Source: Isurus oxyrinchus (taxonomy: Eukaryota). From it: 64,000 nt of DNA. Below the pieces are notes generated by a model. It saw nothing but the letters and a program-made list of their open reading frames with translations, did not search any database and was not told where the DNA came from. Below, piece by piece: positions 1,920 to 55,913 of the stretch. A program made the translations under genes and the position numbers. Numbering within the stretch: the stretch's first letter is position 1; every line of letters starts with the position of its first letter. The stretch lies in contig JANJGN010000008.1 of NCBI GenBank assembly GCA_026770705.1, positions 153,078,001 through 153,142,000 on the forward strand, given 5' to 3'.

Positions 1920-2922
1920 AAAACAAAAATACCTGGAAAAACTCAGCATCTGTGGAGAGGGATACAGTTAACGTTTCGAATCTGAATGACTCTTCATCAG
2001 AACAAAGGAAAAATAGAAAAGAGGTGAAATATAACCTGGTTTAAGGGGAGGTGGGACAAGTAGAGCTGGACAGAGGGCCAGTGATAGGTGGAGATTGCCA
2101 AAAGATGTCATAGACAAAAGGATAAAGAGGTGTTGACGGTGGTGATATTAGCTAAGAAATGTGCTAATGGGGACATTAAGGTTAGAAAGCAGGATGAGCA
2201 AGGTACAGATAGCCCTAGTGGGGGTGGGGGGTGGGGGGGGGGGGTGGTGGGGGCGGGGGGAAGGGATCGAAATAGGCTAAAGGGTAGAGATAAAACAATG
2301 GATGGAAATACATTTAAAAATAATGGAAATAGGTGGGAAAAGAAAAATATATATAAATTATTGGAAAAAAGGGGGATCGGAAAGGAGGTGGGGATGGAGG
2401 AGAGAGTTCATGATCGAAAGTTATTGAACTTAATATTCAGTCCGGAAGGCTGTAAAATGCCTAGTTGGAAGATGAGGTGCTGTTACTCCAGTTTGCGTTG
2501 AGCTTCACTGGAACAATGCAGCATAGCCTATTTCGATACCTTCCCCCCACCCCCCCCAAAACCCCAGTTGGGCTATCTGTCCCTCGCTCGTCCTGCTTTC
2601 CACCCTTAATGTCTCCATTAGCACATTTCTTAGCTAATATCACCACTGTCAACACCTCTTTGTCCTTTTGTCTATGACATCTTTTGGCAATCTCCACCTA
2701 TCACTGGCCCTCTATGCAGCTCTCTACCTGTCCCACCCCCTCCCTTAAACCAGCTGATATTTCACCTCTTTTCTATTTTTCCTTAGTTCTGATGAAGAGT
2801 CATTCGGACTCAAAAAGTTAACTGTATTCCTCTCTGCAGATGCTGTCAGACCTGTTGAGTTTTTCCAGGTATTTTTGTTTTTGTTCTAGATTTCCAGCAT
2901 CCGGAGTATTTTCCTTTTATCT
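1920..2922. mobile_element. Penelope-like element (family 1), inverted pair of 3' ends with 16-bp TSD
   Basis: Left arm (minus, to ~2524) includes the GIY-YIG C-terminal coding remnant; right arm (plus) is its reverse complement; direct repeat tagtgtttaattaaca at 1904-1919 and 2923-2938. Confidence 0.85.
1967..2003 (-). ncRNA. Minimal type I hammerhead ribozyme motif (PLE family 1)
   Basis: Minus strand GUU-CUGAUGA-A-GAGUC-auuca-GAUUC-GAAA-CG-UU-AAC: intact core boxes, stem II, short stem I and palindromic ACGU stem III. Confidence 0.7.
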
Positions 2923-3707
2923 TAGTGTTTAATTAACATTACTTTTAGTTTGTTTGTTACTGTAAAATTTCTTAAAACCTGAAATCTTGTTGTACAATTC
3001 CTTTAAGTTGGTGGCTAGGAAATTGAATTTCTTTTTAAAAGATTTCAGTCTCTATGAGGGTCTTAACTACAGGAGATGGTACTCACTATTATCTTTTGTT
3101 GCAACATTCATTAAATACACTTTTACAAATGTAATTTCTGCAGTGAGTAGAGCTTGAACAAATACGGTCCAATGTATTAATACAGCTATGCTCTTCCATT
3201 AGAATAAGTGACCCGCAGTTGGTTCAGAGTTCTAACTGGTTTGATTTACAGCAAAATGATAGACTTCTATTGATTTAAAAAGTTTAATTCTACATTAACT
3301 CTGCCTACATTTATTCCTTTAACATTTTGTGTCAATCAGTAATTTATGAATGCAGTTTTTGTGCTCACATTCCTGCCATTATATCTTGGCTCCAAATTCA
3401 ATGTTGATGTACAGCTGTTGGCCAACTGAACAATGGAGCTACATTGTTTGACCACACTTCCAAGGGTGGGTGGATCTGGAGCTGCAAGTGATTGACAGCT
3501 CAGAGAGACAAATGCTGGACCACACAGTCTTTATGTGTTGCTCCTTGCTTTCTCTCTCTCTTTCTCTCCTCTGACAAGAGTGTGGGTGAACAGGCATGAG
3601 CAGCCTGTGCCAGAAACCAACTCGTTTTGGGACTGCTTAGCTTGAAGATGAATCTATATCTGTGATGTCAGTAAAGTTTAATTTTTATGGGCTCAGGAAA
3701 CAAGAAT

Positions 3708-3837
3708 GGTGAAGAGTCAGACAGACTCGAAACGTTAACTGTGCTCCTCTCCGCAGATACTGTCAGACCTGCTGAGCTTTTCCAGGTATTTTTGTTTTTG
3801 TTTCGGATTTCCAGCCTCCGCAGTTTTTTGCTTTTAT
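3708..3837 (+). mobile_element. Penelope family 1 3' terminal fragment (truncated within the hammerhead)
   Basis: gaagagtcagacagactcgaaacgttaact ... cgcagttttttgcttttat matches family ends at 2790-2920 and 5380-5503. Confidence 0.8.
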
Positions 3838-4387
3838 GAAAGTTGATTGATACAGTTACACAAAATGTGCTCTGCTCACTCGTGTAAAAGCAATTTCTTT
3901 GCCACCACGCCGTGTCTCAAGAGAACGCTTTTCAATCTGCATCTCGCAAGACAACAATTGTTAGCTCAAATAACAATACACACACAATACTTCAGTAAAT
4001 GGTTTACAAAACAAGGTCCTATCATTTTTTTAAAAATAGTGGATGGTTTTAGGATTGTGAGGTCTGCTTTGCAGAAGTGCCCAGTGACTATGACTGTATG
4101 TGGGTGGTCACAGTGGCAACTGCAAAAATATGAACCTGTTAATAATGAATCATTGGATGATTTTGCTACATCTAAAATAGCTTTGCTCACTGTGCCATAC
4201 ATGGGAAAATATTCTGTTTCTCAGCACAAATGTCCCTCATCTTAATGAGAACAAATGCTTGAGAATTTAGAAAAACCAGCTCAGCCTCGACTGCAGGGTC
4301 TGAGTATCTTCAGTCTATGAGCGCCAAGAGGTCAGTTTTATTTACTTAATGCAGGTATGTGCATTCGGTTTTTAGTTTAGAAGTTTA

Positions 4388-4760
4388 GGGGCAGAATATT
4401 AAGCTCAGTGGGCGGACACGTGCCCCACCCGGCCCGAGTGCAAAATGACACGCGATGATGTTGGGCGAACGTCATGATGTTATCGCTTAGTCCCGTGATA
4501 TTAGGTTCAGCCCGTGCGCACCAGGGTTTGCAGCGCGACCGCTGACAATTAAAAGGCCTATTAAGGCCATTAAAAAGGTAATTCATTTCAAATTTACTCT
4601 GCCCGTCCAACTTAAAGGTTGGCTAAAAGGCCAAGCAGCTTTTGCATTTTTTAGAAAACCTCATCCACGGGCGGGATGAGATTTCCTAAAGCAAAAAAAA
4701 ATAAAATGAGAATTTCAAACTTGAATTAAAAACATGTCCCTGCTCATGTGACGGAGCCAT
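4388..4760. mobile_element. PIF/Harbinger-type MITE, truncated next to a Penelope copy
   Basis: Begins tag|gggcagaat; family palindromes at 4656-4685 and 4733-4752. Confidence 0.7.
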
Positions 4761-4767
4761 GACCCCA

Positions 4768-5504
4768 CAGAACACCTTCGGTCTGTCCGCAAGCATGACC
4801 CAGACCTCCCTGTCGCTTGCCATTTCAACACTCCACCCTGCTCTCATGCCCACACGTCCGTCCTTGGCTTGCTGCATTGTTCCAGTGAAGCCCAACACAA
4901 ACTGGAGGAACAGCACCTCATCTTCCGACTAGGCACCTTACAGCCTTTCAGATTGAATATTGAGTTCAACAATTTTAGATCATGAACTCTCTCCTCCATC
5001 CCCACCCCCTTTCCGCTCCCCCTTTTCCAATAATTTATATTTTTAAAATATTTTTCTTTTCCCACCTTTTTCCATTATTTTTAAATGTATTTCCATCCAT
5101 TGTTTCATCTCCAAGTCTATTTCATTCCCTTCCCCCCACCCCACCCCCACGAAGACCATTTTTTACTTGCTTGTCCTGTTTTCTACCCTTAATGTCACCA
5201 TTAGCACATTTCTTAGCTAATATCACCATCATCAACACCCCCTTGTCCTTTTGTCTATGTCATCTTTGGCAACCTCTCCTTTGCTTCCAACTATCACTGG
5301 CCCTCTGTCCAGTTCTACCTGTCCCACCCCCTTCAACCAGCTTATATTTCACCCCATTTCTATTTTTTCTCAGTTCTGATGAAGAGTCTTACGGACTCGA
5401 AATGTTAACTGTTCCTCTCTGCAGATGCTGTCAGACCTGTGAGTTTTTCCAGGTATTTTTGTTTTTGTTTCAGATTTCCAGTATCCGCAGTATTTTGCTT
5501 TTAT
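4768..5504 (+). mobile_element. Penelope-like element family 1: GIY-YIG endonuclease C-terminus, 3' UTR and hammerhead
   Basis: 4770-4985 reads EHLRSVRKHDPDLPVACHFNTPPCSHAHTSVLGLLHCSSEAQHKLEEQHLIFRLGTLQPFRLNIEFNNFRS*, typical of PLE GIY-YIG C-termini. Confidence 0.88.
5371..5411 (+). ncRNA. Minimal type I hammerhead ribozyme motif (PLE family 1)
   Basis: CAGUU-CUGAUGA-A-GAGUC-uuacg-GACUC-GAAA-UG-UU-AACUG: 5-bp stem I, perfect 5-bp stem II, intact core boxes. Confidence 0.72.
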
Positions 5505-6127
5505 CTTACTCCCCTTCCTTGCTACCATACTCGACATCAAGGATATCACAAGGTTACTGGCACTCTAATGAAAGAAAATAATTTACAATTTAGCACTCAA
5601 ACCCCCTGCCCCGAATGCTACAAAGGGATTATATTTTGATTGTGAGGCACCTGAATTTTTTTTTTAAATATTTAAAATAAATAGTCTTCCTCTTCAACCT
5701 GAAGGTAGCTGTCCCTTCTGCTGTTGCTAAGGAGCTCAGGAACAGCACAACCATATCCAAACCATTCCAAGAGGTGACCTCCACCCGCACCCCCCCCCCC
5801 TCCCCCACATACACTGGACAGAAATCCTGTTGGGATCCCACTATAAATATCATAGTATCAGTGGAGATCAAGCTGGGCAGAAGCAAATCCCATAAAGATA
5901 CAGGGTTTACACCAGAGTGCAAAAACTATGGCTTTGAAGAGCTCTCTTGGCACAAAGTGATCACCAGAGTGTTAGGAGAGAAGAGGACAGAGAAAACAAG
6001 GGAAGGGAAGAGAAGAGAGTCAACAGAAACAGGCCTATCGGCACTGAACCTAGGAGTGAATTCCAATGTCACAGTTGAACAATGTGACAGACCAAGACCT
6101 CAAAAGTTCCAGTATCAAATAACATTA

Positions 6128-6810
6128 TAACATAAGAAATAGGAGTACGCCATTTGGCTCCTCGAGCCTGCTCCACCATTCTGTAAGACCATGGCTGATC
6201 TTCTTGTGTTTCGATTTCCACATTCCCATCTAACCCTGAAAACCTTTGATTCCCTTGCCTAACAAGAATTTATCTACCTCTGCCTTAAAAATATTCAATG
6301 ACCCCGCCTCCATCACCTTCTGAGGCAGAGAGTTTTAAAGTCGCACAACCCTCAGAGAAAAAATTTCTCCTCATCTCTGTCATAAAAGGGCGACCCCTAA
6401 TTTTAAAACAGTGCCCCTTAGTTCTGGACTCAGAAACATCCTTTCGAAGTCTACCTTGTCGAGGCCGTTCAGGATCTTATATACTTAAATTAAATCACTT
6501 CTCACTCTTCTAAACTCCAGTGGAAACAAGCCAAGTCTGTCCAACCTTTCTCATAAGACAACTCACTCATTCCAGATATCAATCTAGTAAACCTCCTCTG
6601 AACCGCCTCCGATGCATTTACATCCTTCCTTAAATAAGGAAACCAAAACTGCACACAGTATTCGAGGTGCGGTGTCACCAATGCCCTGTATAACTGAAGC
6701 ATAATATCCTTACTTTTATGTAATGTCTCATAATAAAGGATAGCATTCCATTAGCCTTCTTAATTACTTGCTGTACCTGCATACTAACTTCTTGTGAGTC
6801 ATGTACTAGA
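6128..6810 (-). mobile_element. CR1 LINE 3' fragment
   Basis: ORF 6502..6702 LYRALVTPHLEYCVQFWFPYLRKDVNASEAVQRRFTRLI is the CR1 ORF2 C-terminal motif; CR1-type 3' tail at 6128-6200. Confidence 0.9.
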
Positions 6811-7740: not shown

Positions 7741-8251
7741 CTGGGGGAGGAGGAGGCCTTACTCAGAGAGCTCTGAGATTGTGGAGCTCACAACCACATC
7801 GAGTGGGTTGAGGCAAATAGCACAGGTGCAATTAAGGCGAAGCTGGATAGACACATCAGGACGAAAGGAATAGAGGATATGCTGATAGGGTGAGCTGAAG
7901 AATGGGAGGAGGTCCCTGTGAAGTACTGACACAGACTGGCTGGACTCTGATAAAGAAGTTTCACTGTCCCATATCAAGACAGATTTACAGACAATACATT
8001 GAGGCTATCTTTAATGCAACACCATACCCGTTAACATCCCCATTAAGAACAGATACATTTTCTCAACTTTTACATTCAGAAGTATTGATTAAACTAAATG
8101 ATATTTTTTGGAGAAGTTCCTGACAAATTCCCTCAAGTCATGATTCCTATGATGGGACGTGTCACATTGGCTGTCGTACTGAGGTTAAGTCTAAACTGGC
8201 TAATTATTGAAACAACATTATTTCCAGAAGCTAACATTAATCAGCAAGGTA

Positions 8252-8990
8252 AAAGCAAAATACTGTGGATGCTGGAATTCTGAAACAAAAACAAAAATAG
8301 CTGGAAAAACTCAGCAGGTCTGACAGCATCTGTGGAGAGGAACACAGTTGACGTTTCGAGTCAGTATGGCTCTTCATCAGAACTAAGGAAATAGAGAAAT
8401 GAGGTGAAGTATCAGCTGGTTTAAGGGGGGGTGGGACAGGTAGAGCTGGATAGAGGGCCAGTGATAGGTGGAGGCAAAGAAGAGATTGCCAAAGATGTCA
8501 TAGACAAAAGGACAAAGGGGTATTAACGGTGGTGATATTATCTAAGGGATGTGCTAATGGTGACATTAAGGGTAGAAAGCAGGACAAGCAAGGGACAGAT
8601 GGCCCTAGCGGGGGTGGGGTGGGGGGAAGGGATCGAAATGGGCTAAAAGGTGGAGATAAAACAATAGATCGAAATAAATTTTAAAATAGGTAGGAAAAGA
8701 AAAATATATTTTTTAAAAATTCTAAATTATTGGAAAAAGGGGAATTGGAAAGGGGGTAGAGATGAAAGAAAGAGTTCATGATCTGAAGTTGTTGAACTCA
8801 ATATTAAGTCCAGAAGGCTGTAAAGTGCCTAGTCAGAAGATGAGGTGCTGTTCCTCCAATTTGTGCTGAGCTTCACTGGAACAATGTAGCAAGCCAAGGA
8901 CGGACATGTGGGCATGAGAGTAGGGTGCAGTGTTGAAATGGCAAGCGACAGGGAGGTCTGCGTCATGCTTGCGGACATACCGAAGGTGTT
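8252..8990 (-). mobile_element. Penelope-like element family 1 with 15-bp TSD
   Basis: Reverse complement of 4770-5503; direct repeat ttaatcagcaaggta at 8237-8251 and 8989-9003. Confidence 0.88.
8346..8384 (-). ncRNA. Minimal type I hammerhead ribozyme motif with GUC cleavage triplet
   Basis: Minus strand AGUU-CUGAUGA-A-GAGCC-auacu-GACUC-GAAA-C-GUC-AACU; one mismatch in stem II. Confidence 0.72.
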
Positions 8991-9111
8991 AATCAGCAAG
9001 GTATTGGCTCCTCCTGGGCTAAATTATATTGCACAAATCCCAACTTTGCTGACATTCTTCTTATCCCTTTCCACAAATGGCATCATGGTTAAATAGATAG
9101 GGGTTTTTTTT

Positions 9112-11565
9112 TCTTATTTATTCATGGAATGTGGACACACTGGCAATGCCAGCATTTATTGCCCATCTTCATTTCTCTTGAGAGAGTGGTGGTGATCTGC
9201 CTTCTTGAACTGCTGCAGTCCATGTAATGCAGGGCAGGGCATACTCACAGTGCTGTAAAGGAGGTGACCCAGTGACAATGAAGGAACAAAGATATATTTC
9301 CAAGTCACGATCATGTGTGGCTTGGAGGGGGACTTGCAGGGGGTGGTGTTTTCCTATACCTGCTGCCCTTGTCCTTCTGGATGGCAGAGGTTACAGGTGT
9401 GGAAGGTGATATTGAAGGAAGATTGACGGATTGCGGCAGTGCATCTTGTAGGTGGCACATACTGCTGCCACCATGCACCAGTGGCGGAGGGAATTAATGC
9501 TTAAAATGATGGATGTGGTGCCAATCAAGTGGGCTGCTTTGTCCTGGATGGTGTCGAGCTTCTTGAGTGTTGTGGGAGCTGCACTCATCCAGGCAAGTGG
9601 AGAGCATTCCATCACACTCCTGACTTGTGCCCTGTAGACTGGCACTTGTGTGGCGCAAATGTTACTTGCCACTTATGAACCCAAGCCTGAATCTTGTCCA
9701 AGTCTTGCTGCAAGTGGGCATGGAGTGCTACAGTATCTGAGGAGTTACAGATAGAAACAGAAATGTAGAAAATAGAAACAGAGGTAGGTAATTCAGCTCT
9801 TCGGGCCTGCTTTGCCATTCAATATACATTCAATATTCAATAGCCATTCAGAGGATCATGGCTAATCTTCTATCTCAACACCATACTCCCGCTTTCTTCC
9901 CATAACCCTTGATGCTTTTCGAGTCTAGAAATCTATCTATTTCCTTCTTAAATATATTGAGTGACTTGGCCTCCACAGCCCTCTGTGGTAGAGAATTCCA
10001 CAGGTTCACCATCCTCTGAGTGAAGAGGTTTCTCCTCATCTCAGTCCTAAATGGTTTACCCCAACTTCTGAGACAGGCTTTGGGAGTAAGAAGGTGAGTT
10101 ATTCACCACAGAATTCCCAGCCTCTGACCTGTTCTTATAGCCACAGTGTTTATGTGGCTGATCCAGTTCAGTTTCTGGTCAAATGGTAACCCCCAGGATG
10201 TTGATGATGGGGGAATTCAGTGATGGTAATGCCATTGAATGTTGAGCGGGCTGGTTCTCTCTTGTTGAAGATGGTCATTGCCTGGCACATAAGTGGCAAG
10301 TAACATTCCTGCCACACATCAGCCAAGCCTGAATGTTGTCCAGGTCTTGCTGCATGTGCGCAAGGACTGGACCAGAAACAAAATCTTATGGTTTCCCAAC
10401 AACAAACTCCATCATTATCATTGTTCTTCATCCTTCATCACATACAAAGGCACACAATGACAGCTACCAATTCCAAGGCAAATCTAAAACTGATTAAAAC
10501 CAATCACATAGATACAGTTAATATTAGCAAAATGATGGAAGGTGTCATCGACAGTGCTATCAAGCAGCACTTACTCATCAATATCTGCTCGCTCATGCTC
10601 AGTTTGTGTTCCGCCAGTACCACTCAGCTTCAGACATCATTATGGGCCAAAGAGGTGATGGAAGAGTGGCTGCTGTTGACATCAAGGCAGCATTTGACCA
10701 AGTGTGACATCAAGGAGTCATAGCGAAATTGAAATCAATAGGAATGAGGGGGAAAACCCTACATGCTAACACAAAGGAAGACAGTTGTGGCTGTTATCTG
10801 CATCCCACGATATCACTGCAGGCGTTCCTCAGGATAGTTTCCTAGGCCCAACCATCTTTAGTTCTGCCACTGACCTTCCCTCCATCATAAGATCAGAAGT
10901 GGGAATGTTTTCTGATGATTGCACAATGTTCAGTATCATTGCAACGTATAAAATTCTGACAGGGCTGGACAGACTGGATGCATGGATGATGTTTCCTCTG
11001 GCTGGGAGGTCTGGAACAAGGGGTCAAAGTCTCATAAATTGGGGTAAACCATTTAGGACTGAGATGAGGAGAAACTTCTTCACTCAGAGGATGGTGAACC
11101 TGTGGAATTCTCTTCCACAGAGGACTGTGGAGGCCAAGTCACTCAATATATTTAAGAAGGAAATAGATAGATTTCTAGACTCTAAAAGCATCAAGGGTTA
11201 TGGGGAGAAAGCGGGAGTATGGTGTTGAGATAGAGGATCAGCCATGATCCTCTGAATAGCTATTGAATATTGAATGTATATTGAATGGCAGAGCAGGCTC
11301 GAAGAGCTGAATGACCTATTCGTGCTTCTATTTTCTACGTTTCTGTTTCTATCTGTAACTCCTCAGATACCGTAGCACTCCATGCCCACTTGCAGCAAGA
11401 CCTGGACAAGGTTCAGGCTTGGGTTCATAAGTGGCAAGTAGGCAAGTAACATTTGCACCACACAAGTGCCAGGCAATAATCATCTCCATGAGAGATTCTA
11501 AGTGTACACCCACTAACTTGATGCCTAACAGCATTACCATCACAATTCCCCCGGTAATATTCATA
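9112..11565. mobile_element. Cluster of CR1-clade LINE fragments of two families in both orientations, including a local inverted duplication
   Basis: ORF 9391..9672 VRSVMECSPLAWMSAAPTTLKKLDTIQDKAA; ORF 10785..11228 GVPQDSFLGP..FSDDCT (RT motifs) fused to CR1 FRTEMRRNFFTQRMVNLWNSLP. Confidence 0.85.
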
Positions 11566-11629
11566 TTATTGATGGAGGATAAAATTTGGGTAAAATGGAT
11601 ATGTTACTGCAGAAAGATAAATATTAGTG

Positions 11630-25179: not shown

Positions 25180-25274
25180 CCAGTGAAGACAAGGCAGAGC
25201 AGAGTACAAATCAGTATTGAAACTTGATTAGACATGGCGGATTGTGTCCTCTGAATGGCTCTATGCAAATCATT
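25180..25274 (-). CDS. KCNT1: KCNT channel coding exon (95 bp; S4-S5 linker and S5)
   Basis: ttctttctctccag|AAT GAT TTG CAT ... TTC ACT GG|gtgagt; encodes [31 protein letters not shown](G). Confidence 0.96.
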
Positions 25275-29681: not shown

Positions 29682-30707
29682 GGGCACCATTTTGCTCTTG
29701 GCGGGGGTGTTTGGCAAGGACGGGCGGGGCGGTCAGGAAGCTGACCAGCCGTCCACGATTGGCTCCACACCGCGACTTCATGCTGGCAGGCCAATTAAAG
29801 CCCGGTCAGCGTGCAACGCAAGCGGCAGCCGTGCTGGCTGTATGTGGGGTGGGAGTGGGGGGTGGGGGAAGAGGGTGAGCGGGCCTAGCGTGATCTTCGC
29901 GCATGCACGTGAAAGAGCGTTTCAATCTCCCTGAGGCACGGAGCTGCCTCAAGGAGATGAAGCGCTGTTTGAAACAAAGTAAAGGAATAAGATTGTCATA
30001 CAACATGTCCCCTCAAGTGACTCTGTCACATGAGCTCGGATATGTTTTTGATTCAAAAATAACATTTTTACCTGACATTTATATGCTTTAGGAAATCTCA
30101 TCCCGCCCGTCATCCCATGTCATTTCAATTTTCAGGTTGGCAGGGGCACAGCCGAATCAGCTATGTGCCCACCGACCTGTCAAAGGCCAATTGAGGCCAG
30201 TTAAAAACTAATTGAAGTCATTGAAGGACCTGCCCGTCCAACCTTAAGGTTAGCGGGCAGGATGGAAAACCTGGCGGCCTTCAGAAAAAGCATGAAACCT
30301 CAACCACAGGTAGGATGAGGTTTCATGTCGGGTTTTAAAAATTTAATGAAAGTTTAACTAAAAGCGAGGGACATGTCCCAACTCATATGACAGTGTCACA
30401 TGAGGGGACATGTCAGGGAAATTTTATTTTTCTATATTTCACATTTTTGAATTTGGCGCCGATCTCCCTGAGGCAGCACTTAGCCTCAGGCTCAGGTACA
30501 TCAGTGTGCTCTTTTGCATGAAAGGGCGCAGTCTTGGCTGAGGGATCTCCCCCCCACCCAGCCCCGCACAGGGAGTGCATAGCGCTCCCTGGTGGATGTC
30601 ATTCTGGGCGGGCCTTAATTGGCTCGCCCACGTAAAATAGCAGCACGCCTCCCATCAGGGGCGTGAGCTTCTGAACCTCCCCCCCAACAGTGGGAAAATT
30701 CTTCCCT
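29682..30707. mobile_element. Two fused partial PIF/Harbinger-type MITEs in opposite orientation
   Basis: Family palindromes occur twice (30003-30043, 30371-30412); junction near 30110. Confidence 0.65.
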
Positions 30708-30709
30708 GT

Positions 30710-31830
30710 GGTTACAACAGCAGGTCAGAGGCTGGGAATTCTGTGGCAATTAATTCATCTCCTGATTCCCCAAAGCCTGTCCACTATCTACAAGTCAGGG
30801 GTCTGGTGGAATACTCCCCCGTTGCCTGGATGAGTGCAGCTTCAACAACACTCAAGAAGCTGGACACAATCCAGGACAAAGCAGTCTGCTTGATTAGCAC
30901 CCCATCCACCACCTTCACCAATCACTCCCTCCAAAACGAATGCATTGTGGCTACAGTGTGTACTACAACAACTCCCTGGGGATTCTTCAACGCCATTTTC
31001 CAAACCTGTGATCTCCACCGCCTAGAAGAACAAGGGCAGCAAGCACATAGGAACTTCACCACCGGTAAATTCCCCTCCATGCATCGTCCTGTTTTGGAAA
31101 AATATCGCCGTTCCTTCTTTAACATAGGAACGTCCTCCCGAACAGCATTGTGGGTGTACCTGCACACATGGGCTGCAGCAGCTCAAGGAGGCAGCTCACA
31201 AAAACCTTCTCAAAGGCCATGATGGACACGGCGGGCAGGCCTGGAAGTGGCTGGGAGATGGACCCGCTGCCCGCGATCGGCCCCCGACCCACGATTTCAC
31301 GCTCTCTGGCCAATTAACGGGCAGCCAGCGTGAAAGGTGCGCTGAAAGGGGTGGGGGGGGGGGGGGTGGGATGAGGGTGAGTGCAAAAGTCTCCTCATGC
31401 GCCAGGGGTGGGGAGCGCGCACTGACAGCTCCCTGTAGGCTCAAAAATTCTGCTCAAAAATTTATATTTATTTTTTATTTAATTGTAGGAGCCTCATCTC
31501 GCCTGTGGATGAGGTTTGCGAAAAAGTCAAAAGGCCGCCTGCCCCGCGTAACGTTGGACGGGCAGCGAAAAATAGCTTTCAACTGATCGATTAGGGGCCT
31601 CAATAGGCCTCTTAATTGTCGGTGGGCGCGCTGCCGACTCTCGCCCATGCCCACCTACCGAAATATCGCGTGAGTGCGCGATGACATCGGGACGCTTGCT
31701 CCACGTCACCGCGCACTATTTTACACCCGATGGGGTCGGGCGCGTGCCCATCTGCCTGCCTGCGGGATGTAAAATCCTACCCCTGGCCTTGCCAGCAATG
31801 CCCACCTCCCGTTGACAAATACTAAAGAAA
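30710..31830 (+). mobile_element. CR1-clade LINE 3' end interrupted near its tail by a Harbinger MITE (31225-31783)
   Basis: ORF 30743..31222 VEYSPVAWMSAASTTLKKLDTIQDKA; tail resumes tggccttgccagcaatgcccac at ~31784. Confidence 0.75.
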
Positions 31831-41245: not shown

Positions 41246-41649
41246 CTGTAAATAACAAAAAAAGCGAAGCACAGTTGAATGTACCTTTCAAAATCTGCGT
41301 TCTACCCAGCCATTCATTCATTTCACTTCTGAGTGGCATTATAAATCTAATTTTTTCTTGGGAGATGGGCGTCACTGGCAAGGGCAGCATTTGTTGCCCA
41401 TCCCTAATTGCCCTTGAGAAGATGGTGGTGAACTGCCTTCTTTAACTGCTGCAGTCCATGTGATGTAGGTGCACCCACAGTGTTAATGGAGAGGGAGTTC
41501 CAGGAGGCTAAAGAAACTGCAAAACTGACGACATTCATGATCAGGTATAAATCTGAAGCCTCATCTTCTGAGGGTATGGACAGCGATAAAAGAAAATGAC
41601 AATAATTCCATCTGCAAATCTGTTGCCACCTGAGCTATCTCTGCCAATA

Positions 41650-42165
41650 AGTAGTAGTTGTGATCTGTTAAAGGACAGGTCCTCTGTTCATTTCCACACA
41701 TCTCAAAGTCTTGCACTTTCCTCTTCTGTTGTTCGTAGTGGCCTCCCATATGCAATTTCATCTTGTCAAATTTCATCATTCTCTTTTTCCCTCTTGACCT
41801 ATGTCCCCCTAATCTTCCTTCAATCACCTTCTTCAGTAAGACCTCATGCCTTAGAATATGACAAATCCAACTTTGCTGCCTTTCCTTGATATTCATTAAC
41901 AATCTTTCCTGCTCCACCACCCTCAGAGTTTCTTCACGGCTCTGTTCTCTCGAACTGACACTCTCCATCCTTCTCCAGAACCACAATTCACAATGTTCTA
42001 GACTTTGGATGTTGATTGTTCTCAAGGTTCATGTTTCAGTTGCGCAGAACAAGACCTTCCAAATCACAGAATTGATCATTTTTTTTCTTAAGATCTCTAC
42101 TCATTCCTACACTGAGCGATTCTTTATGTCAGCAGAATGCATCCTTTGCCACTGCTATGCCATAA
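41650..42165 (-). mobile_element. RTE-clade LINE ORF2 C-terminal remnant
   Basis: IAVAKDAF..LKKKMINSVIWKVLFCATET* followed by ELWFWRRM..EETLRVVEQER..WICHILRHEVLLKKVIEGRLGGHRSRG, matching the RTE post-RT pattern EMWCWRRM..NEEVL..WIGHILR..IIEG..GKR.RG. Confidence 0.8.
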
Positions 42166-42405: not shown

Positions 42406-45400
42406 TGTCGTGAACACTTTAATAAAAGAAAATGGTTCATCTTCAAGGATTAAGGACATTGTGGAAGAATTTGTGTTTTAAAAGACACTGCCCCTTAAAG
42501 GGTTAATGCAGGGCTCTGGGGAAAAAAAAAACATCCTTTTACAAGAAAAGGTAATTAAGCAGTTGACAAAAGGCTGGAAACTTCTTGACCCGGGTGAACT
42601 GCGTATGAAGGTGGGTCACACGGTTTTTATGGCTCTGAGAAAAAACCTTGCCGGGTAGACCGTGGCCAGTATTTCACATTCGGTGTGCGGGGAACTGGGC
42701 CCGACAGGCCGGAATGTAAAATGATGCGCGATGATGTCAAGAGTGTGTCCCAACGTCATCGCACTGTCTCACGATATTTCATTTGGCGGGCGCATGCCGG
42801 AGCTGGCTGCGCACCCGCCGATAATCGAAAGGCCTAATAAGGCCATTAACGAAGTAATTAATGTCAAGTTTACGCGGCGCAGGCAAGAAGGCCAAGCGGC
42901 CTTTACGTTTTTTAGGAAACCTCATCCAAGATCGGGGCGAGGTTTCCTAAAGCTTTTATGGATTAAATAAAAGCTTTTTCTGAAAAATAAAAACATGTCC
43001 CATCTCATGTGACACAGTCACATGGGGGGACATGTTTCATTACATTTTTATTGCGTTTATTTATTTCAAAGGCACTTTAATCCGGCGCCTCAGGGAAATT
43101 GAAGCGTTCTCTCATGTGCACACTCGAAAGAGCACTGGACCCGACTCTCTCTCCTCCCCCCGCCTGCACAGATAGCGCTCAGTGCTACCGCTCGCGTATT
43201 AAGCTGGGTGGGCATCAATTGGTCCACCCGCGTAAAATGGTGGTGCGGAGCCGATCGCGGGCGGTGGTTGACTCTGCGACCTCTCCCGCCGAGCCTGCCC
43301 ATCACAGAAAAAATTCAGGCCAGTGTTTTAAAAGCGGGTTTTGGTTTTGCTTTTGAGAAGAGAAGGATCAACTACTTGAGAAGGAAGACAACACCCTTTT
43401 TGCAGTCCAGAGCCAGTCCACAGCCAAAGTGAACAGAAGCTGCTGCTAAGTTGCTACATGCAGTAGAGTACCTGCCAGGGGTTGCAGGTTCAAATCTTGG
43501 ACAAGCCCCCAATCTATGTTAAGACTGGGATGACATACCTGTGAGTAATTCTCGAGCTCATCTGAAAAGCAGTGCCGGAGCCATTGATTGTTTCACGGTC
43601 AGTGCTGAGAGACCAATTGTATGACCCAGACACCATTTCAAGGACTCCACCATCTATCCTTTGCCTTTGAACCATTGACTTTTGACCTTTAGCAGAGTTC
43701 CTCCACTTCTATTTTTATTTAATTCATTGTATGTGTGTGAGTATGTGCACGTGTGAGTGTTTGTATGTGTNNNNNNNNNNNNNNNNNNNNNNNNNNNNNN
43801 NNNNNNNNNNNNNNNNNNNNNNNNNNNNNNNNNNNNNNNNNNNNNNNNNNNNNNNNNNNNNNNNNNNNNNNNNNNNNNNNNNNNNNNNNNNNNNNNNNNN
43901 NNNNATGCGACAGAGAGTGACTTAGGATATCTCGAAAGAGTAATTAGTATAATTTCATATTCCATATCCTATGTTGATAAGCTTTGCCCTTCTATTTGAC
44001 AAGATTGGTTTCATAATAAACCAATAGGTTTGTTGTTTATTGAAAAAAGCCTGGTTAAAGTCTCTTTTATTCTGGGTACCAGCAGTGAAGGCAAACACTC
44101 TTTTGGTGAGTAAATTAAACTTTTAAACTAATGCTACAACCTGTGGTGTAGTGAGGCTAAATCAATTGCGTACTCCTCCCATTTCAGTTGTAACATAGAT
44201 TGGGGGCTTGTCCAGAATTTGAACCCAGGACCTGTTGCAGGTACTCTATCCAAGCACATAGCAACTTAGGAGCAGCTTCTTTCACTTCTGGCTGTGGATT
44301 GGCTCTGGGCTGCAAAAAGGCTGCTGTCCTCCTTCTCAAGCAGTTGGTCCTTCTCTTCTCAAAAGCAAAACCAAAACCCACTTTTAAAATGCTTCCAGGC
44401 ATGGCTTTTTTTCAGAGCCATAAAAACCACATGAGCCCCTTTGTGCACAGCTCACCAGGGTCAACAGGTTTCTATAACATAAAAGCAAAATACTGTGGAT
44501 ACTGGAAATCTAAAATATAAACAGAAAACGCTGGAAAAACTCAGCAGGCCTGACAGCATTTGTGGAGAGAGAAAAACAGAGTTAACGTTTTGAGTCCAAA
44601 TGGCTCTTCTTCAGAGAATAAATATTATTTATTCAAGAGGTTTCCAGTTTTTTTTCAACGGCTTAATTACCTTTACTTGTAAAAGGATGCTTTTTACAGG
44701 AATAGCAATCAGAGTCCTGCATTAACCCTTTAAGAGACAGTGGGCAGGACTTTTAGCATGGCAGGTGGGCGCGCGCCTGAGCCGACTGAGTGTGAAATGA
44801 TGCGTGATGACATCGGCCAAGCATGCCAATGTCAATGGGCAGTCGCGCGCTAGTTCAGTCGGCAGCGCACCCGCCGACAATGAAAAGGCCTATTAAGGCC
44901 ATTAAGTTATCAACTGTGCTGAATTTTTCACTGCCCGTTCAACCTAACGGCTGACGGGCAGGCGAAAAGGCCAAGGGGCCTCCCGCCTATCCACGGGCGG
45001 GATGAGGTATCCAAGATCAAAAACAAATGAAATAAGATCTTTAATTTTTACTTAAAAACATGTCCCTGCTCATGTGACATGTTTTATAACGTTCTTGTGC
45101 TGTTTAAAAATTTTTCCAATATATTCTTCACCCCCCCGAGACAGCTCCGTGCCTCAGGGAGATTATTCGCCGCTCTTTCGCTCGCGCGCGTGTGTGAAGT
45201 TTGCGCTAGGCCTGCTCGCCCTCCTCCAGCGCTCAGCACCACCGCTCGCGTATCACGCTGGGTGGGCCTTAATTGGCCCGCCCGCGTAAAATCACAGAGC
45301 ACCCTCCCCCACTGATCCTGCACGCCCAGGGCAAAATTCCGCCCAGCGTTTCATAAAATACAAATTCTTCCAGAGTGTCCTTAATCCTTGAAGATGAGTC

Positions 45401-46880: not shown

Positions 46881-46911
46881 GACTAATAAAGGTTTTAAGG
46901 AAGTGAACTTA

Positions 46912-47460: not shown

Positions 47461-48029
47461 CACTACTGTACTTTGTGCAAATCTGGGACGATTCTGCCCT
47501 CTGTCACCAGCATTGGGGTGGATCTGGGAGGGTGGAGGGTGCATTGTAGGGCACAGGCTTGTAGAAGATTTAAGGCAGTGTGGCATAATAAGGCCAAGGG
47601 GGGATTTGAAAAGGAGGGAAAGGATTTTGAAGTTCATGCTCTGGGAGAATGGGAGTTCATGGACACGAGTGTACAGGACTCTGAATGAGATAAGCAACAG
47701 CTTACTGGATGAAATAAAAACAGAAAGTGCTGGAAAGCTCAGCAGGTCAGGTATCAGGTGTAGAGAGAGAAACAGATTTCACATTTCAGGCCGATGAACT
47801 TTCATCAGAACTAGGAATGAGCTGGCAGTTTCTGTAGGGTGGGGATGGAAAGCTGAACAAGAACTTTACAGGGCAAATTAGACCATGAGGTGATGTCTAT
47901 GGTCTTCACAATGGCAATGAGGGAATTCTAATCACATTCTTTGTTAAGTCAGTTTTAAATTATCCAAGTGATATTGATACAACAAGGAGAGTATGAAATT
48001 CTTTTATAATTGTTTGGTAGTACAGGACT

Positions 48030-48898: not shown

Positions 48899-51800
48899 GG
48901 TTATTTTCTGTTATAATTTCCTGCAAGATCTAAGCATTGTTTATTGCAGGATTGTTATAATTCAAAACTGTAAGGTATTACCTGTCATTCCTGGGAGTCA
49001 GTTCTCCAATTGTCTTGGCCAATATTTATCCCCTAAAACCAGCATCACTAAAACAGATTATCTGGTCATTATCACATTGCTTTTAGCGGTACCTTGTTGT
49101 GTGCAAATTGGCTGTCACATTTCCTTCATTACAACACTGGCTACGCCTCCAAAAGCACTCCATTACCTGCTAATCACTTTGAGACACCCTGAAAGTCATG
49201 ACAGGCGCTATCGAAATGCATGTTCTTTCTTTTTCTTTGAATGGCGTAGTGGCTGCAACATTCCAGAGGAAACAATCTTTTCACTGAATCAGTTTTATAA
49301 TTTGAAGCTCACCTCAGGTTGCAAAGGGACATTATCCTTATAATTAAAACTGCTTCAGAAGCAGACTTTAAACATTGGTTTCCATATTGCACAGTTCCCA
49401 CTACCTGACGCAAGTGCTATGGGCTGTACAATTAAGACCAGCACACTGGGACAGTTGAGGCTCAACTTAATGATAGACAACCAGCTGGGAAAGGAGATGG
49501 GATCAATCAATGAGGTGCAACATTTTTGGGTATGGCCAACAGGATGGTATCCACCGTGGTAGTGTTGAACTGAAGAAAATTGTAACTAAACCGGAGATTG
49601 ATGGCTGGCTAGCATACAGACAACACGTTGACAATGATCAGACAATATAGTGACAGAAGAGCAGTGCAGTAAGCAATGGACAGCAGAGTATGTGGTGGCC
49701 ACATTATACCACAGTGATAGCACAACAGTGAGACAGCGCAGTGACAGTCTGGTGATGTGGTGATAGTGGGGCAACTCTGCAGTGATAGAAGGTGACATAC
49801 TGGCCAACAGGACAGTACTGTAACAGTCTGACAAGAGTTAGATGCTGGGGCAACAGCACAGCAGTAGAACCGTGAAAGAATAAAGGGACAGAATGGGAGC
49901 AAAGCCAACAGTGGGAGAATGGTGACAGTCAGTGGAAGAACAGGCAACTGTTGGCGGATGGAAAGTGGGTGACTTTCTTTTATTTATTCTTTCACAGGAT
50001 GTGGACATTGCTGGCTAGGCCAGCATTTACTGCCCATAAAAAGGTGAACTGCTGCAGTCCATGTGACATAGGTACAGCCACCATGCTGTTATGAAGGAAG
50101 TACTTTGTAGCTGTTTGATACAACTGAGTGGCTTGCTGTAGGTCTGGAGTCACATGAAGGCTTAGGATGGCAGATTTTCTTCCTCAGTGAACCAGGTGGG
50201 TTTTTACGTCAATGGTCACTATTACTACGACTAGCTTTTAACTTCACCAGCTATCGTGGTGGGATTTGAACCCATGCCCCCAGAGGATTAGCCTGGGCCT
50301 CTGGATTACTAGGCCAGTGATATTACCACTAGACCACTGTCTCCCCTGGGAGGATGGATAATAGTGGGACAATGGGTGACAGTGGGGCAGGTGGTGGGCA
50401 AAGTTATGGCTTTGAGGTAGAGCCAAAGGTCATTGGTGTATATATAGAAGACTCATCTGACATCTTTTTAAAAAGTGGAATATCTCTGTTTTACACTTCC
50501 ATAGAGATAACACATAATACTTCTGTGGCTTATGGTGATCAAGGATTCTCTATCAGTCCACTAAAGTTGGTGGTGTGCTCACTCCAATCAGAATCATGGA
50601 AAGTGCTGCTATTGAACCTTTGTTCTTCCCCTTAACACACAGAAGAGAATTGAAACTTAATACCTATACGCTGCTAAAGATTGTCATTATAAATGCAAAT
50701 CATAGATAACAGCTGGAAGTCTATTACTGCCTCGAGTACTTAAGGTTTAGTAATGTCTCAAACTGTACACCATGATACAGAAACTAACGTTTAATGTCTG
50801 CCTCTGAAGCAATGTGGATCATGAGGGAAATGTTAAAGATATTATTTGAAAGTATATTAATTCAACTCGCACACATGGCAGTATCAGAAATTTAACCGCT
50901 AAATTCCCTGCTCAAACACATTCACAAACCAACAAAAACCATCGAGGATAGTAACGGGAAGCACTTTACAGTTAATCTTACTTCTTTTCAGCTGCACTAA
51001 TGGCAGCTTTAAGTTAAGGGTGAAAATTCAGCAATGTAAGTCCACATAGAATAGAAAGCACTGAAACAGGCCATTCGGCCCAATCAGTCCATGCTGGCAT
51101 TTATGCTCCACTTGAGTCCCTTCCAATTCTTCCCCATTTAACTTTATTGGCATAATCTCTGTTCCCTTCTTCCTTATATGCTTTGCCTGAAAAGTGTCTA
51201 GACGACTCGTTCCAATTTGATCTAAACAAAGCATTTTATGAAATTTTTATGTTTCTTTTGTTGACAATTGGTAGGGTCAGTGGTCAGGGAGATTCAGTAA
51301 ATATAGGATCTACCATGCCCTTGGCAAATCCCGCAAGTTTACCATGACAATATGGGACCTATCATCAGGAGCTGGTGGTACATAAGACATCTTAGCTGCA
51401 ACACAATCTCTCAGTAACATTTGAAATCTGGTTTGATGACATTTAGGGAAGAATCTTACCGCTTTTACAGATTTTCAGAGGTCGGAATCCAAACCAGGTC
51501 CCAACACCGCAGGTGATGCCTGGCAGCCCGCCTGTGGGATTTTACAAGAGGCAGCTTCTGGTGATGCCATCCAAATTAAGGGTGGCAGGCAGGACATGCG
51601 TCCGATTTGCTTGGTACAGAGGTGCCCTGCCAGGAGCCCAACTGGGAAGGCGAGCGCTGCTGCGGCAGGCAGGAGAACACGAGGGCATCTCAAGACGAAA
51701 CCACTCCATGGGATGGGTGGCAGCTGCAGCTATGGCCCAGCTGTCTGCGACTCCACTGGGGAGAAGGGGTTGGGGGGGGGGGGGGGGGTAAGTATAGGAG

Positions 51801-51999
51801 GTATTCCTGGCTTTCTTGTCAATGGAGGGCTGTCCACAGCTGGGAAGATTTCAGTGGCATCCCCAATCAGCTGCCATCGTGGAACTTGAACCCATGTCCC
51901 TCGGGCATTAGCTTAGGCCTCTGGATGACTTACTCAGTGGCATTACCCCTGCGCCTGCATTTCCCCCAGAGGTGTTGATTAAGCCTGGCAATCAATCTC

Positions 52000-52330
52000 T
52001 ATCATCACTGGACTAGTATTCTGGAGACTCAGGGTAATGTTCTGGGGACCTGGGTTCGAATCACATCATAACAGATGGTAAAATTTGAATTCAATAAAAT
52101 TCGGGAATTAAAAGCCTGATGATGACTACGAAACCATTGCTGATTGTCAGAAAAACCCACCTGGTTCACTAATGTCCTCCAGGTAAGGAAATCTGCCATC
52201 CTTACCTGGTCTGGCCTACATGTGATTCCAGGCCTGCAGCAATGTGGCTGACTCTTAAACGCCCTCTGAACAAGGGCAGCTAGGGATGGACAATAAATGC
52301 TGGCCACATCCCATGAACAAATAAAAAAAA
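52000..52330 (+). mobile_element. tRNA-derived SINE (same family as 12140-12453)
   Basis: B-box gggttcgaatc; tail taaatgctggccacatcccatgaac plus A-rich end. Confidence 0.8.
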
Positions 52331-53432
52331 AGTCTACAACAGGAGAAGACATGAGGTGAGGAAAACCCCCAGTGGTTGAGAGCTTTGCAACCCATTCCTG
52401 AGCCATCCTACATGTGCCTTATGTCATGTTTCTAATTACTCATACGCTGCATTCTAAAATATTATTTTCTGAATGAAATCTACATATTTAATTTGCATTT
52501 GAATGAATCAATACAAACCATTGCCACCATCTCCCTAGGGAACCCATTCCATGGATTGACCACTCACTCACTGAAACATTAGGGGCAATTTTAACTGAAC
52601 TCACCCTTCAGGAAACTAACAGCACTGTGTGCAATGCTGGTTTTACTCTTCATTGAAGTGAAGAAAGACTAATATCGGGCAGGACCCTACCTGAAAGCTT
52701 TGACAAAATTCTGCGCCCAACAGTGTTAACTTGCACTCAATTGTGAAAGCTGTGTTTGAAAGTGAATTTTTAAATTATCATTTGATATCTTAAAGTAATC
52801 AAGTGAAGGAACTGACCTGAACCTACATCAGTTGTGAATGTTTATTTGCTTGCAACTGTAGAAACAACATCAATTGCGAGCAGCAACCGTTCACTTGACA
52901 TCATTGGTGTTAGGTCAGCGATCAGCTAATTCCAGAGTGTGCTCACAGCCAGTGGGTTTCCCAATGGACAGATTACATTAGGATCACCCCCACTGAAGGG
53001 ACCACCTCAGTAGGCATTAAAAATCAAGCACATATCGTGGATCTGACGTTACCTAGGAAAGGTTCCAAGTCCTCTTTGTGATCTTGTGACCTAGTTTTTT
53101 TTTTAACCACAGTTTATGAGCTTTTAATAAAAGCAAAATACTGTGGGGATTTGAAATAAAAAAACAGAAAGTACTGGAAAAACTCAGCCAGTCTGGCAGC
53201 ATCTCTGGAGAGGGAAACAGATTTAACGTTTCCAATCCAAAATGATTCCTCTTCGGAATTCCTTCAATGATTTTTGACTGGTGTTAATTCACCCATTATT
53301 AGATTCATTGAGTTTAATTTCGCAACATGGCATGTTAGGGATTGGGCTGACTCTGTTCAGGACCCTGACCACTAAGGCTACTATGATTTGGTCATGTAGA
53401 TGTCATGATGAGATATTAATGTGAACAATGTT

Positions 53433-54935
53433 GTTGGAAATTATTTTTTAAAATAGAATTCTAGTGGGAGGGATCTGTGTCTAGCTATGTGTCTGTGTGT
53501 GTCTTAATTGGATTAAAGACAGCTAGTCTAGGTACTTTGATGTGTAGTAGTTTTGAGATGTTAATTGGGTGAACAATAAGGAGAACAGTAAGGTAATGTG
53601 TTCATTTGCATTTGTTGAATAAACAATTAAAGGCTGTGGGTAAAATCTTACACCTAGCTGGAAGAAGCCAAACGATGTGTTTAATTTTTCAGCGTACTAA
53701 TAAAGTTGGTGCTATGAAAGGGGTTTTATTGTTAGAAGAGCTGAAGGTCAAAAGACCTAGTGCAGGATCTTTAGGTTGGCAAGCGGGGGCGGAGCCTGCT
53801 CACCAGCGTGTAAAATGACGCAGGATGATGTCGGGCGGAACTCCTGACGTCACCCCGCATCATTTCAATTTTCAGGTCAGCAGGGCCGCAGCCAAGTCAG
53901 CTGTGTGTCCGCCGACCTGTCAATGGCCAATTGAGGCCATTGACAAAGTACTTAACGAAATTAATGGACCTGCCCACCCAACCTTAATGTTGGCGGGCAG
54001 GCCGGGAGCCCTGGCGGGCTTAAGAAAAACCATGAAACCTCATCCATGGGTAGGATGAGGTATCATGAGGGATTTTAAATTTTTAATAAAGGTTTCACTG
54101 AAAGTGATGGACATGTCCCAACTCATGTGACACTGTCACATGAGGGGACGTCAGGGAAATTTTGTATTTGTCTCTGTAACATTTTAAAATTTGGAGCCGA
54201 TCTCCCTGAAGCAGCACTTAGCCTCAGGGAAATCAGTGTGCTATTTCAAGCGCATACACAAAAGAGTGCAATCTTGGCTGAGGGAATCCCCCCCCCCACC
54301 TGCACAGGGAGCGCATAGCGCTTCCTGGTGGACGTCATGCTGGGTGGGCCGTAATTGACCCGCCCATATAAAATGGCGACATACCCCCAATCAGGGGCGC
54401 CGATCGGAGGCGCGCCTGCCCACACCCACTTCTGCACACCCTCCCCGACGGGGGGAAAATTCTTTGCCTAGTGATACAATGGAAAATTTACATTCAAAGG
54501 GAAAGCTAGGTCAATAAAGACAGGAATTTGTGTGTGTAAGGCAGAGGCATTTAAGACCTAACCAGCCTGTACGCCTCCAACCAACTTGCAAAGGAACTTC
54601 ATTTGGAATTCATAAGGTCAAATGTGCTTTCCTGGTGTCTATTTAAAGTTTATGGGTTACTGTTGCCTTAGTGGAGATTTTCCTGGGGGTGATTAATTTG
54701 GGTATTTAAAAAGTTATTATAGTAGTGATTTATAGTCATGTGTATGTGTTCAATTTGTTGTTAAATTAATAAATGTTTAATTTAGTTTTATATAAAAACT
54801 ATGGTGGTCTTATTCCTATTTAATTCAAAGGCTGCACCTCGAGATTACAAATTGCAAAAATGGATATGACAGTTGTTTGAAGTTTCCCCCTGGGATTTGA
54901 ACAACTCAGCCTTTACCATCAACTGGGTCATAATA
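53433..54935 (+). mobile_element. Probable solo LTR with a full-length Harbinger MITE inserted at 53761-54468
   Basis: tgttgg start, AATAAA near 54768, end caactgggtcataa like the 13746-15042 LTR; MITE flanked by tag/tag. Confidence 0.6.
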
Positions 54936-55745
54936 TAGAATCCAAAGTGAATGTGAATGATTTGCTCCAATAGAATTCCTTTTAACATGAAGGATAGTAA
55001 AGAACGTTCATCCACTAAAATTTTGTACAAAAGGTAGAATGGGAAATGATTTGGCCCATTGGAATTATCTACAATGGGAGTGGATGAGAAGCAATTAGAA
55101 CAGCAGTCTCCTTATTGTAGCTGATGGGCTATATGTGACCCCCTCAAACCTTGGCCGTCCAGACCCCAAAAGCCCAGTTCATACCATCTCAATTCAACTT
55201 ATGTTTCTTGACCACTGGTTTGTTTTGTTTGAATTTCATGGGCTTCGGGGCTGGATGTGGTGTTGTTTCCTTTTTTATGCATGAATACTAAGGCAGAACT
55301 CCAGTTAGCACCAGCCACTTGAGACCTATTCAAATGAACACGTAGCATGGGTTAGTCTTCAGATGTGGCCCCCAAGACTGTTATATGGCCCGCAAAGAGA
55401 TAAAATCTTTAATGCCTGTGCACTAGATTTCTATATAATGGGAGTGAACATCAAGTGCTTTAGTACGTTAGAATTCAGTGCTTGGATCAGATATAGTGGA
55501 TGGACTACACTGATGATTAAAAAAAAACACATCTAAGAGGTAATAATGGGATTCAGTCTACTGCAGTCATGTCTTCTTGATGAATGGGCTAGATAAAACA
55601 AGCCATGCATCCTGATTTCCCTATGGTCTATCATTTATGTCTTGGCTGTTAAACACTTTCCATTTTCTCATTTTGCAGCACAGAACTAATAGTAATCCAC
55701 ATTCAGCAGAACTCTTGCTTTCTTGAAAAGTCTCCTCAACATACA

Positions 55746-55913
55746 AAACAAAAACAGAAATACCTGGAAAAATTCAGCAGTTCTGTTGAAGGGTCATGAG
55801 GACTCGAAACGTCAACTTTGTTCTTCTCCGCCGATGCTGCCAGACCTGCTGAGTTTTTCCAGGTATTTCTGTTTTTGTTTTGGATTTCCAGCATCCGCAG
55901 TTTTTTGTTTTTA
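55746..55913. mobile_element. Short inverted Penelope family 1 insertion with 15-bp TSD and near-intact hammerhead (55779-55817)
   Basis: TSD tctcctcaacataca at 55731-55745 and 55914-55928; agttctgttgaagggtcatgaggactcgaaacgtcaact. Confidence 0.85.

Follow-up and report, generated by a model that had tools for sequence, protein, structure and literature searches.

The pseudo-long terminal repeats (pseudo-LTRs) of Penelope-like elements (PLEs) carry minimal hammerhead ribozymes (PMC4209133) with a U-rich 5′ flank, a CUGANGA core, an extra base between positions 9 and 10.1, a G10.1-C11.1 pair, GAAA, a palindromic C-G at 15.2-16.2 without loop 3, UH and a short stem I. Most are single dispersed motifs derived from truncated copies, and opposite-strand pairs lie 100-700 bp apart. 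Such minimal hammerheads showed no activity as monomers and only weak activity when placed as adjacent dimers (PMC4209133; review PMC6765202), and hammerhead function in the endonuclease-bearing (EN+) PLEs has been called unclear (PMC8557442). The same sequence features and the same dispersed arrangement are found in a 64,000-nucleotide stretch of the 4.98-Gb genome of the shark Isurus oxyrinchus (C8:153,078,001-153,142,000, contig JANJGN010000008.1; hereafter the window), which contains part of the potassium channel gene KCNT1. It is highly probable that the hammerheads in this window belong to pseudo-LTR ends of a Penelope-like retrotransposon with a very high copy number, and that these ends, distributed over both strands of KCNT1 introns, are inert, decaying passengers rather than a pair that cuts the pre-mRNA.

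The carrier resembles the EN+ PLEs of the Neptune and Nematis types (PMC8557442) in having one open reading frame (ORF) containing DKG, reverse transcriptase (RT) motifs, a CX2-5CxxC linker and, at the C-terminus, a GIY-YIG domain. The structures described for EN+ PLEs (PMC3846280), namely partial tandems, 5′ truncation, an inverted 5′ copy, an optional 30-40-bp tail and target-site duplications (TSDs), are also seen in the shark, where insertions are 5′-truncated, often head-to-head and in some cases bounded by TSD-like repeats, and where partial tandems, inverted 5′ copies and an optional tail occur. The Poseidon element PAc of Anolis carolinensis (PMC11167929) is similar in having two 3′ end sites about 30 bases apart just past the hammerhead, plus a tail, and in showing signs of uncleaved RNA as template. 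In contrast to the shark element, PAc belongs to another clade that lacks the Zn-finger linker by the Craig definition (PMC8557442), its core is canonical and its ORF begins inside the hammerhead, whereas the long frame of the shark element begins after the tail. The anole hammerhead did not cleave unless protein was supplied, and insertion in vitro did not depend on it (PMC11167929).

Regarded as an intronic array that regulates a potassium channel, the window motifs carry little weight, being the ordinary ends of a repeat that recurs about every 8 kb. The domesticated intronic hammerheads of amniotes are conserved. Those of RECK and C10orf118 (PMC6155905, PMC3088659) likewise lie in an intron of a large gene, but they are single-locus, canonical and held by tertiary contacts, whereas the shark copies are decaying repeat ends without a stable stem III; the stable monomer fold that is a trait of domesticated hammerheads was not found among the predicted folds of the copies at 1967 and 8346. 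Non-LTR retrozymes (bioRxiv 10.64898/2026.07.22.740005) also have type I hammerheads derived from PLE ends and were reported in the sole chondrichthyan genome sampled, but they form head-to-tail tandem repeats; the window copies are dispersed or head-to-head, and a retrozyme origin was rejected for want of head-to-tail units. A literature search on Penelope or hammerhead motifs in sharks and chondrichthyans returned no report of the motifs described here. The canonical shark copies add to a known class, and a local regulatory role is unlikely.

Hammerhead motifs in the window

The motif or its remnants were present at all 12 places named by a sequence-only reading of the window, giving 13 copies since the place at 13.6 kb comprises two arms. 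Read as type I, the motif opens with AGUU of stem I and the CUGAUGA core, after which come a single extra A, a stem II of 5 bp and GAAA; an ACGU palindrome that lacks a loop then leads to position 17 (U or C) and AACU. It fits the metazoan PLE hammerhead consensus (PMC4209133 Fig. S3) and flanks a full RT and GIY-YIG element, in agreement with the earlier assignment to Penelope-type minimal type I hammerheads. A strict 35-41-letter pattern matched the genome exactly at 1,455 places, whereas its reversed control had no match, and a profile seeded from 12 window copies, searched against 80 evenly spaced 10-kb stretches, the KCNT1 flanks, KCNT2 and the window, gave 171 matches in 1.24 Mb against 0 in reversed sequence; because both reversed controls gave none, the occurrence of the motif is not a matter of chance. 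Rfam at E<=10 called no window copy a hammerhead, bar a weak HH9 match on the opposite strand at 53095-53165 (19.2 bits, E 5.5), as is expected for minimal motifs. Rfam matches to mir-3202 and psbJ were rejected, as they correspond to the fold-back insertion at 13.6 kb.

The canonical core (C3 U4 G5 A6 N7 G8 A9 / G12 A13 A14, with A15.1-U16.1 and H17) is retained by three of the ten window copies that span it, those at 1967, 5371 and 8346. These had been called near-intact, which is true of their cores but not of the whole motif, as 5371 has C15.2>U, 8346 a C.A mismatch in stem II, and 1967 a U.U at the outer stem I pair together with GUU, a triplet slower than GUC. All three stem II types previously distinguished (GAGUC/GACUC, GGGUC/GACUC and AGGUC/GACCU) were found.

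The element carrying the motifs

At one genomic locus (L035), two pattern matches 3.3 kb apart flank a frameshifted RT-endonuclease frame, three fragments of which matched no family in Pfam. A tandem at L167 (C1:460500-470400), with three hammerheads and units that are 99.5% identical, contains an open frame of 926 codons that encodes DKG, the RT motifs, a Cx4CxxC linker and, at its end, a GIY-YIG-like sequence; Pfam assigns RVT_1 to this frame above cut-off (E 7e-8), and GIY-YIG with a score below the curated cut-off (E 9e-4). The Cx4CxxC linker between RT and EN is read in the frames of both L167 and L168, and hammerheads are present in both pseudo-LTRs at L035, L167, L168 and L170. Judged from its sequence, the element is an EN+ PLE of the Neptune or Nematis type by the linker definition of PMC8557442. 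The motif lies approximately 100 or 130 bases from the 3′ end of the element, 3′ ends being located at about +97 and +130 from C3. The element is probably Neptune rather than Nematis, given its linker, its vertebrate host and the distribution of the two types. Three window copies retain the last 39-71 codons of the element frame at 85-90% identity (matching aa 856-926).

Young elements, both tandem and single (L167, L170), have open frames of 865-926 codons, and the young family looks, from its sequence, to be recently or still active. The element lineage as a whole covers about 6.4% of the 800 kb sampled. In L167 (5040-5062) and other young copies, a partial second copy of the hammerhead 3′ half occurs just upstream of stem I, and in one young subfamily the letters before stem I may form a 4-bp hairpin with this duplicated half that could block the hammerhead fold.

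Abundance and age classes

The profile gave 97 matches in the 800-kb genome sample, which extrapolates to about 600,000 ends genome-wide, or about one per 8 kb; the KCNT1 flanks (180 kb) contributed 30 matches, KCNT2 (200 kb) 28 and the window itself 16. The window copies had been described as an array of one family. Neither term is apt: the copies are dispersed on both strands, with 97 matches in 800 kb elsewhere, and they fall into four classes. For coelacanth and frog, 4,000-9,000 copies are reported (PMC4209133), far fewer than in the shark, though the search methods differ.

Of the 171 profile matches, 100 span the core and were sorted into classes by hand-set rules. Class B is the largest and least diverged (48 copies, 4.2% from the class majority), followed by A (19, 7.5%), D (20, 11.5%) and C (13, 15.6%). 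The ten core-spanning window copies comprise four A, three D, two C and one B, and are therefore insertions of different ages.

Decay and selection on the stems

Only 13 of the 100 copies spanning the core are canonical. G12 and C15.2, the fastest-decaying positions, sit in CpG, and CpG changes also strike stem III. G12A is present in 12 of the 20 class D copies, and five copies in the window share it, namely those at 2785, 23370, 24988 and 44580 and the plus arm of the 13.6-kb pair. When non-CpG divergence was compared between core and tail, no difference was found in class B (5/432 vs 58/2381, P 0.11), class A with A6 (0/90 vs 11/473, P 0.23), class A with U6 (5/97 vs 23/492, P 0.80) or class D (14/218 vs 99/1103, P 0.29).

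Pairing in the stems is nevertheless well preserved, with 90.7% of cells in stems I and II paired (78 copies, 58 distinct rows) against 16-44% in slid controls. Pair 10.1-11.1 (GC 44, AU 8, GU 5) is the only one with a repeated double change, pair 10.2-11.2 is GU 26, AU 22 and GC 8, and the count of pairs with double changes was no better than in shuffled data, 456 of 500 shuffles reaching it. The palindrome at 15.2-16.2, without loop 3, is ACGU in 36 of 58 rows, with U.G decay in 10 and no pairing in 11. Approximately two family-level changes carry the covariation, which therefore indicates that master elements kept stem II and is uninformative on the inserted copies. The earlier suggestion that maintained stem II pairing reflects selection on structure thus applies between families and among master elements but not to the copies in the window, in which CpG decay removes G12; as far as the alignments allow us to infer, pairing was probably selected in active master elements and not in genomic copies.

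The A6U core of the youngest family

The copy at 55779 carries CUGUUGA and is 92% identical to the young element. The sequence-only reading had recorded this core as a variant; it is indeed present, but it is not private to the copy, being the state of the dominant youngest family. When the seven letters of the core were left unconstrained, the pattern gave 77,202 exact matches, and among the 100 of these that were listed 99 have U6 and one has C6, whereas the same pattern with A6 gave 106 matches. Among the sampled class B copies, U6 is found in 45 of 48 and A6 in none. The intact-frame tandem carries CUGUCGA, so CUGUUGA is probably its CpG-decayed form. In class A, 10 of 19 copies already have U6 together with older stems, so the A6U change predates the newest burst, and the genome retains a series from A6 (old) through U6 with old stems (intermediate) to U6 with new stems (young).

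A6 is present in all 44 rows examined of the alignment in PMC4209133, none of which is from a shark, in contrast to the U of the dominant shark family. A literature search for A6U in the hammerhead core found none, one 2017 study of PLE variants lying beyond the reach of the search. Since A6C lowers activity in Mg2+ and favours Mn2+ (PMC7151607, PMC3088659), A6U is predicted to weaken or abolish cutting. On its sequence, the A6U family is missing one defining feature of PLE hammerheads while keeping what appears to be the fold.

Insertion starts and a possible life cycle

Arms with an identity of at least 90% to the young element number 43 and collapse to 35 insertions, of which 13 are head-to-head. 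Their 5′ starts fall at -9..+2 of C3 in 13 cases (a bin picked after seeing the data, so that its P of 2e-8 is optimistic), at +3..+28 in seven, at the cut site in one, further down in four and further up in ten; classes C and D were left out of this count because an apparent start may there mark the end of homology to the references. With one start in 35 at the cut site, self-cleavage was rejected as the source of 5′ ends in the young family. Since the starts avoid the cut site, the templates were mostly uncleaved, as in vitro for the anole element (PMC11167929).

The pile-up at stem I has several possible causes, among which a transcription start or an RT stop is favoured over a splice acceptor. 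The letters at stem I are TCAGTT or TTAGTT, which in our view resemble an initiator. In the fly, the pseudo-LTR of the element harbours an internal promoter (PMC2377424), and in Drosophila virilis the Penelope intron ends at helix I of the hammerhead, where there is a splice acceptor (PMC4209133). Window copies are alike in this respect, since a pyrimidine tract and YAG end exactly at stem I at 8385-8400(-), 5355-5373(+) and 2768-2786(+). A second acceptor-like site and a CAG/GT donor-like site lie downstream of this YAG. The acceptor AG is lost in the sense copy at 1967 and the donor GT in the sense copy at 8346, and three antisense class A copies keep the donor, but the numbers are small.

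If the shark element works as that of the anole does, its protein would prime reverse transcription at either of two sites that lie downstream of the hammerhead, with uncleaved RNA as template, and copying would often stop or fold back at the 5′ half of the hammerhead to give ends of 100-135 bp. We tentatively propose, with rather more doubt than conviction, that the most abundant shark Penelope family has exchanged catalysis for structure: A6U would have become fixed while stems I-III, G8, G12 and GUC were kept, the transcript would start at the first base of stem I, the element protein would read the fold as a 5′ end signal, and the many solo and fold-back insertions of 100-135 bp would record copying of uncleaved RNA from the tail to the 5′ end.

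Possible effects on KCNT1 transcripts

The eight minus-strand exons in the window match shark KCNT1 proteins at or near 100% (tblastn), and KCNT2 was rejected as host since its matches lie at the paralogous locus on C16. The next KCNT1 exon lies 8.6 kb before the window start, and the resulting 33.8-kb intron (from 25178) holds nine of the 13 window copies, including 8346 and 1967 in sense orientation. The location of these two copies in one intron of a minus-strand KCNT gene had thus been recognised correctly. It had further been suggested that they dimerise and cut the pre-mRNA, and both do have canonical cores and an intact ACGU; dimer cleavage is also the published mode for such motifs (PMC4209133, PMC6765202), and an engineered fast intronic hammerhead lowers mRNA of a zebrafish gene (PMC11856399). 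However, the two lie 6.4 kb apart with three antisense copies in between, and published dimers are adjacent yet weak (PMC4209133). The predicted stem III duplex between them is of 4 bp at -1.7 kcal/mol, while each sense motif with an antisense copy is predicted to reach -52.4 and -43.8 kcal/mol. The fold of 1905-2940(-) is a hairpin of approximately 400 bp (-597 kcal/mol) predicted to bury the 1967 motif through pairing with the inverted, antisense arm at 2789, which is transcribed first. As monomers, the hammerhead-like folds are of -4.2 (1967) and -1.8 kcal/mol (8346), neither is the lowest-energy fold and no stem III forms in cis; 8346 has its stem II mismatch in addition, and the predicted cofold of the two motifs is not the hammerhead fold. 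To judge from the zebrafish knockdown, genuine cutting would carry a cost, but the counts show no depletion of sense copies: between mapped exons there are 11 sense and 12 antisense copies in KCNT1 and 9 and 11 in KCNT2 (P 0.76), a test on 43 matches only that a small bias would escape. It is therefore extremely unlikely that 1967 and 8346 pair through the ACGU palindrome, cut KCNT1 pre-mRNA and lower channel expression.

Slow cutting of the 8346 copy without an intronic partner, either with the element protein or by trans pairing with other transcribed copies, is also very unlikely, if a little less so. The anole PLE hammerhead cleaves only with protein (PMC11167929), intact-ORF elements are present in the genome together with about 25,000 canonical-core copies (extrapolated from four in 800 kb), and element sequence occurs in runs guessed to be RNA. 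On the other hand, insertion by the anole protein depends on the first 172 bases after the start codon (PMC11167929) and the 8346 copy, mismatched in stem II, ends about 130 bases after C3; the anole element, too, is without RNA reads at the cut site (PMC11167929). Four contig sets aligned to the young element contained element sequence, with contigs that cross the cut site, but showed neither a GT..AG joint nor a shared end; as all 24 runs listed are contigs, one of them recorded as RNA, these data are silent on cleavage, strand and level. The lack of a GT..AG joint counts against the idea that the copies affect KCNT1 RNA as cryptic splice signals, for which the pyrimidine tract and YAG at stem I and the donor-like site downstream in young copies would otherwise argue. 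Alternatively they could act as long double-stranded RNA, a substrate for editing or back-splicing: 8990-8246 is predicted to form a 757-bp duplex with antisense 4771-5510 (86% identical, -1135 kcal/mol), and 1916-2933 to fold back on itself. Inverted pairs are common genome-wide, as seen in the young insertions, so no special role follows, and no exon lies within the duplexes. An effect by either of these non-ribozyme routes is improbable, but is the least improbable of the alternatives.

Several observations weigh against regarding the window copies as inert passengers. The window is about twice as dense in matches as expected (16 vs 7.6, bootstrap P 0.015; 13 hammerhead-bearing, P 0.074), although the profile was trained on the window and the window was chosen for these copies. 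Canonical cores are more frequent there (3/10) than in the random sample (4/60). Non-CpG divergence in class C is lower in the core than in the tail (11/143 vs 102/662, P 0.016), contrary to a purely neutral view, though a class made up of several masters would be expected to show this; three other groups lean in that direction but do not reach significance. A mixture of masters and a bias in detection can account for the pattern, as can weak selection. The limited size of the orientation test is a further point, and the zebrafish knockdown by an efficient intronic hammerhead (PMC11856399) makes pre-mRNA cutting possible in principle.

Individual copies and other features of the window

The copy at 1916..2528(-), identified by blastn, is 5′-truncated and consists of the end of the GIY-YIG ORF (aa 888-926 of the intact ORF at 2527-2411, tblastn), the 3′ untranslated region, the hammerhead and a short 3′ end. 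Its hammerhead (1966-2004, minus) has a canonical core, the GUU triplet, a G.U in stem II and a 3-bp stem I, with a predicted cut at 1970/1969. The copy is sense to KCNT1 and forms one arm of an inverted insertion (1916-2933), a head-to-head pair with an identical, TSD-like 16 letters on either flank, whose layout matches one in PMC3846280. The second, inverted arm (2525..2933, plus) is antisense to KCNT1, has a tail and contains a decayed hammerhead at 2785-2823 (plus; G12A, stem III lost). The 16-letter repeat (1905-1920 and 2923-2938) is similar to what comes after the tail of the full element, a likeness that suggests a target chosen by homology.

A solo pseudo-LTR end at 3707..3838(+) begins within the hammerhead core. 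Two larger 5′-truncated copies retain the EN C-terminus: one at 4770..5510(+), antisense to KCNT1, matches aa 856-926 at 90% to the intact ORF and contains the hammerhead at 5372-5410(+) with a canonical core and C15.2>U, while the other, at 8243..8990(-), is sense to KCNT1 and has one stop codon and a 14-letter TSD-like repeat. Within the latter lies the best sense candidate (8346..8384, minus), with a canonical core, a GUC triplet, a 4-bp stem I and the C.A mismatch in stem II (predicted cut 8350/8349). The insertion at 13500..13726 is a head-to-head fold-back of two young-family ends, both arms being truncated within the hammerhead core. Old-class solo ends are found at 23268..23403(-), with AGGUC/GACCU stem II, G12A and a broken stem I, and at 24985..25089(+) and 44475..44615(-), both with a CUGAAGA core and G12A. 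Those at 47703..47812(-), with G at position 17, and 53127..53258(-), with U4C and a broken stem II, are old and strongly decayed. A young-family end at 55735..55916(+), antisense to KCNT1, starts at the first stem I base (55779) after a short inverted tail piece and carries the hammerhead with the A6U core (55779-55817, plus).

The KCNT1 exon at 25179..25274(-) matches at 100% (tblastn), has a GT donor and an AG acceptor, and borders, on the 5′ side, the intron in which the copies from 24988 to 1967 lie. Seven more coding exons are found on the minus strand at about 62809-62726, 59224-59123, 46122-46066, 41238-41194, 38574-38515, 35167-35087 and 26873-26787. A candidate first exon, matching the N-terminus of one shark protein, lies about 40 kb past the window end (window-relative 104338-104505, minus). 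Other repeat fragments are located at 9391-9672, 10304-11228, 20369-21229, 30641-31222, 41561-42028 and 56875-57265, and their translations resemble LINE (CR1/L2-type) reverse-transcriptase ends. A long CA/TG microsatellite region broken by N stretches spans 17300-19100.

Implications

The distribution of the copies suggests that introns of the shark genome tolerate many sense-strand hammerhead-like motifs. If A6U weakens or removes cutting, the youngest family has nonetheless amplified most, and the fold would then be likely to matter more to the element than fast cleavage. The many insertion ends that avoid the cut site bear on the same question of the need for cleavage. As young elements that are intact and nearly identical but changed in the core coexist with older canonical ones, this need is directly testable. 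The A6/U6 series provides a natural experiment on whether cutting is required of PLE hammerheads.

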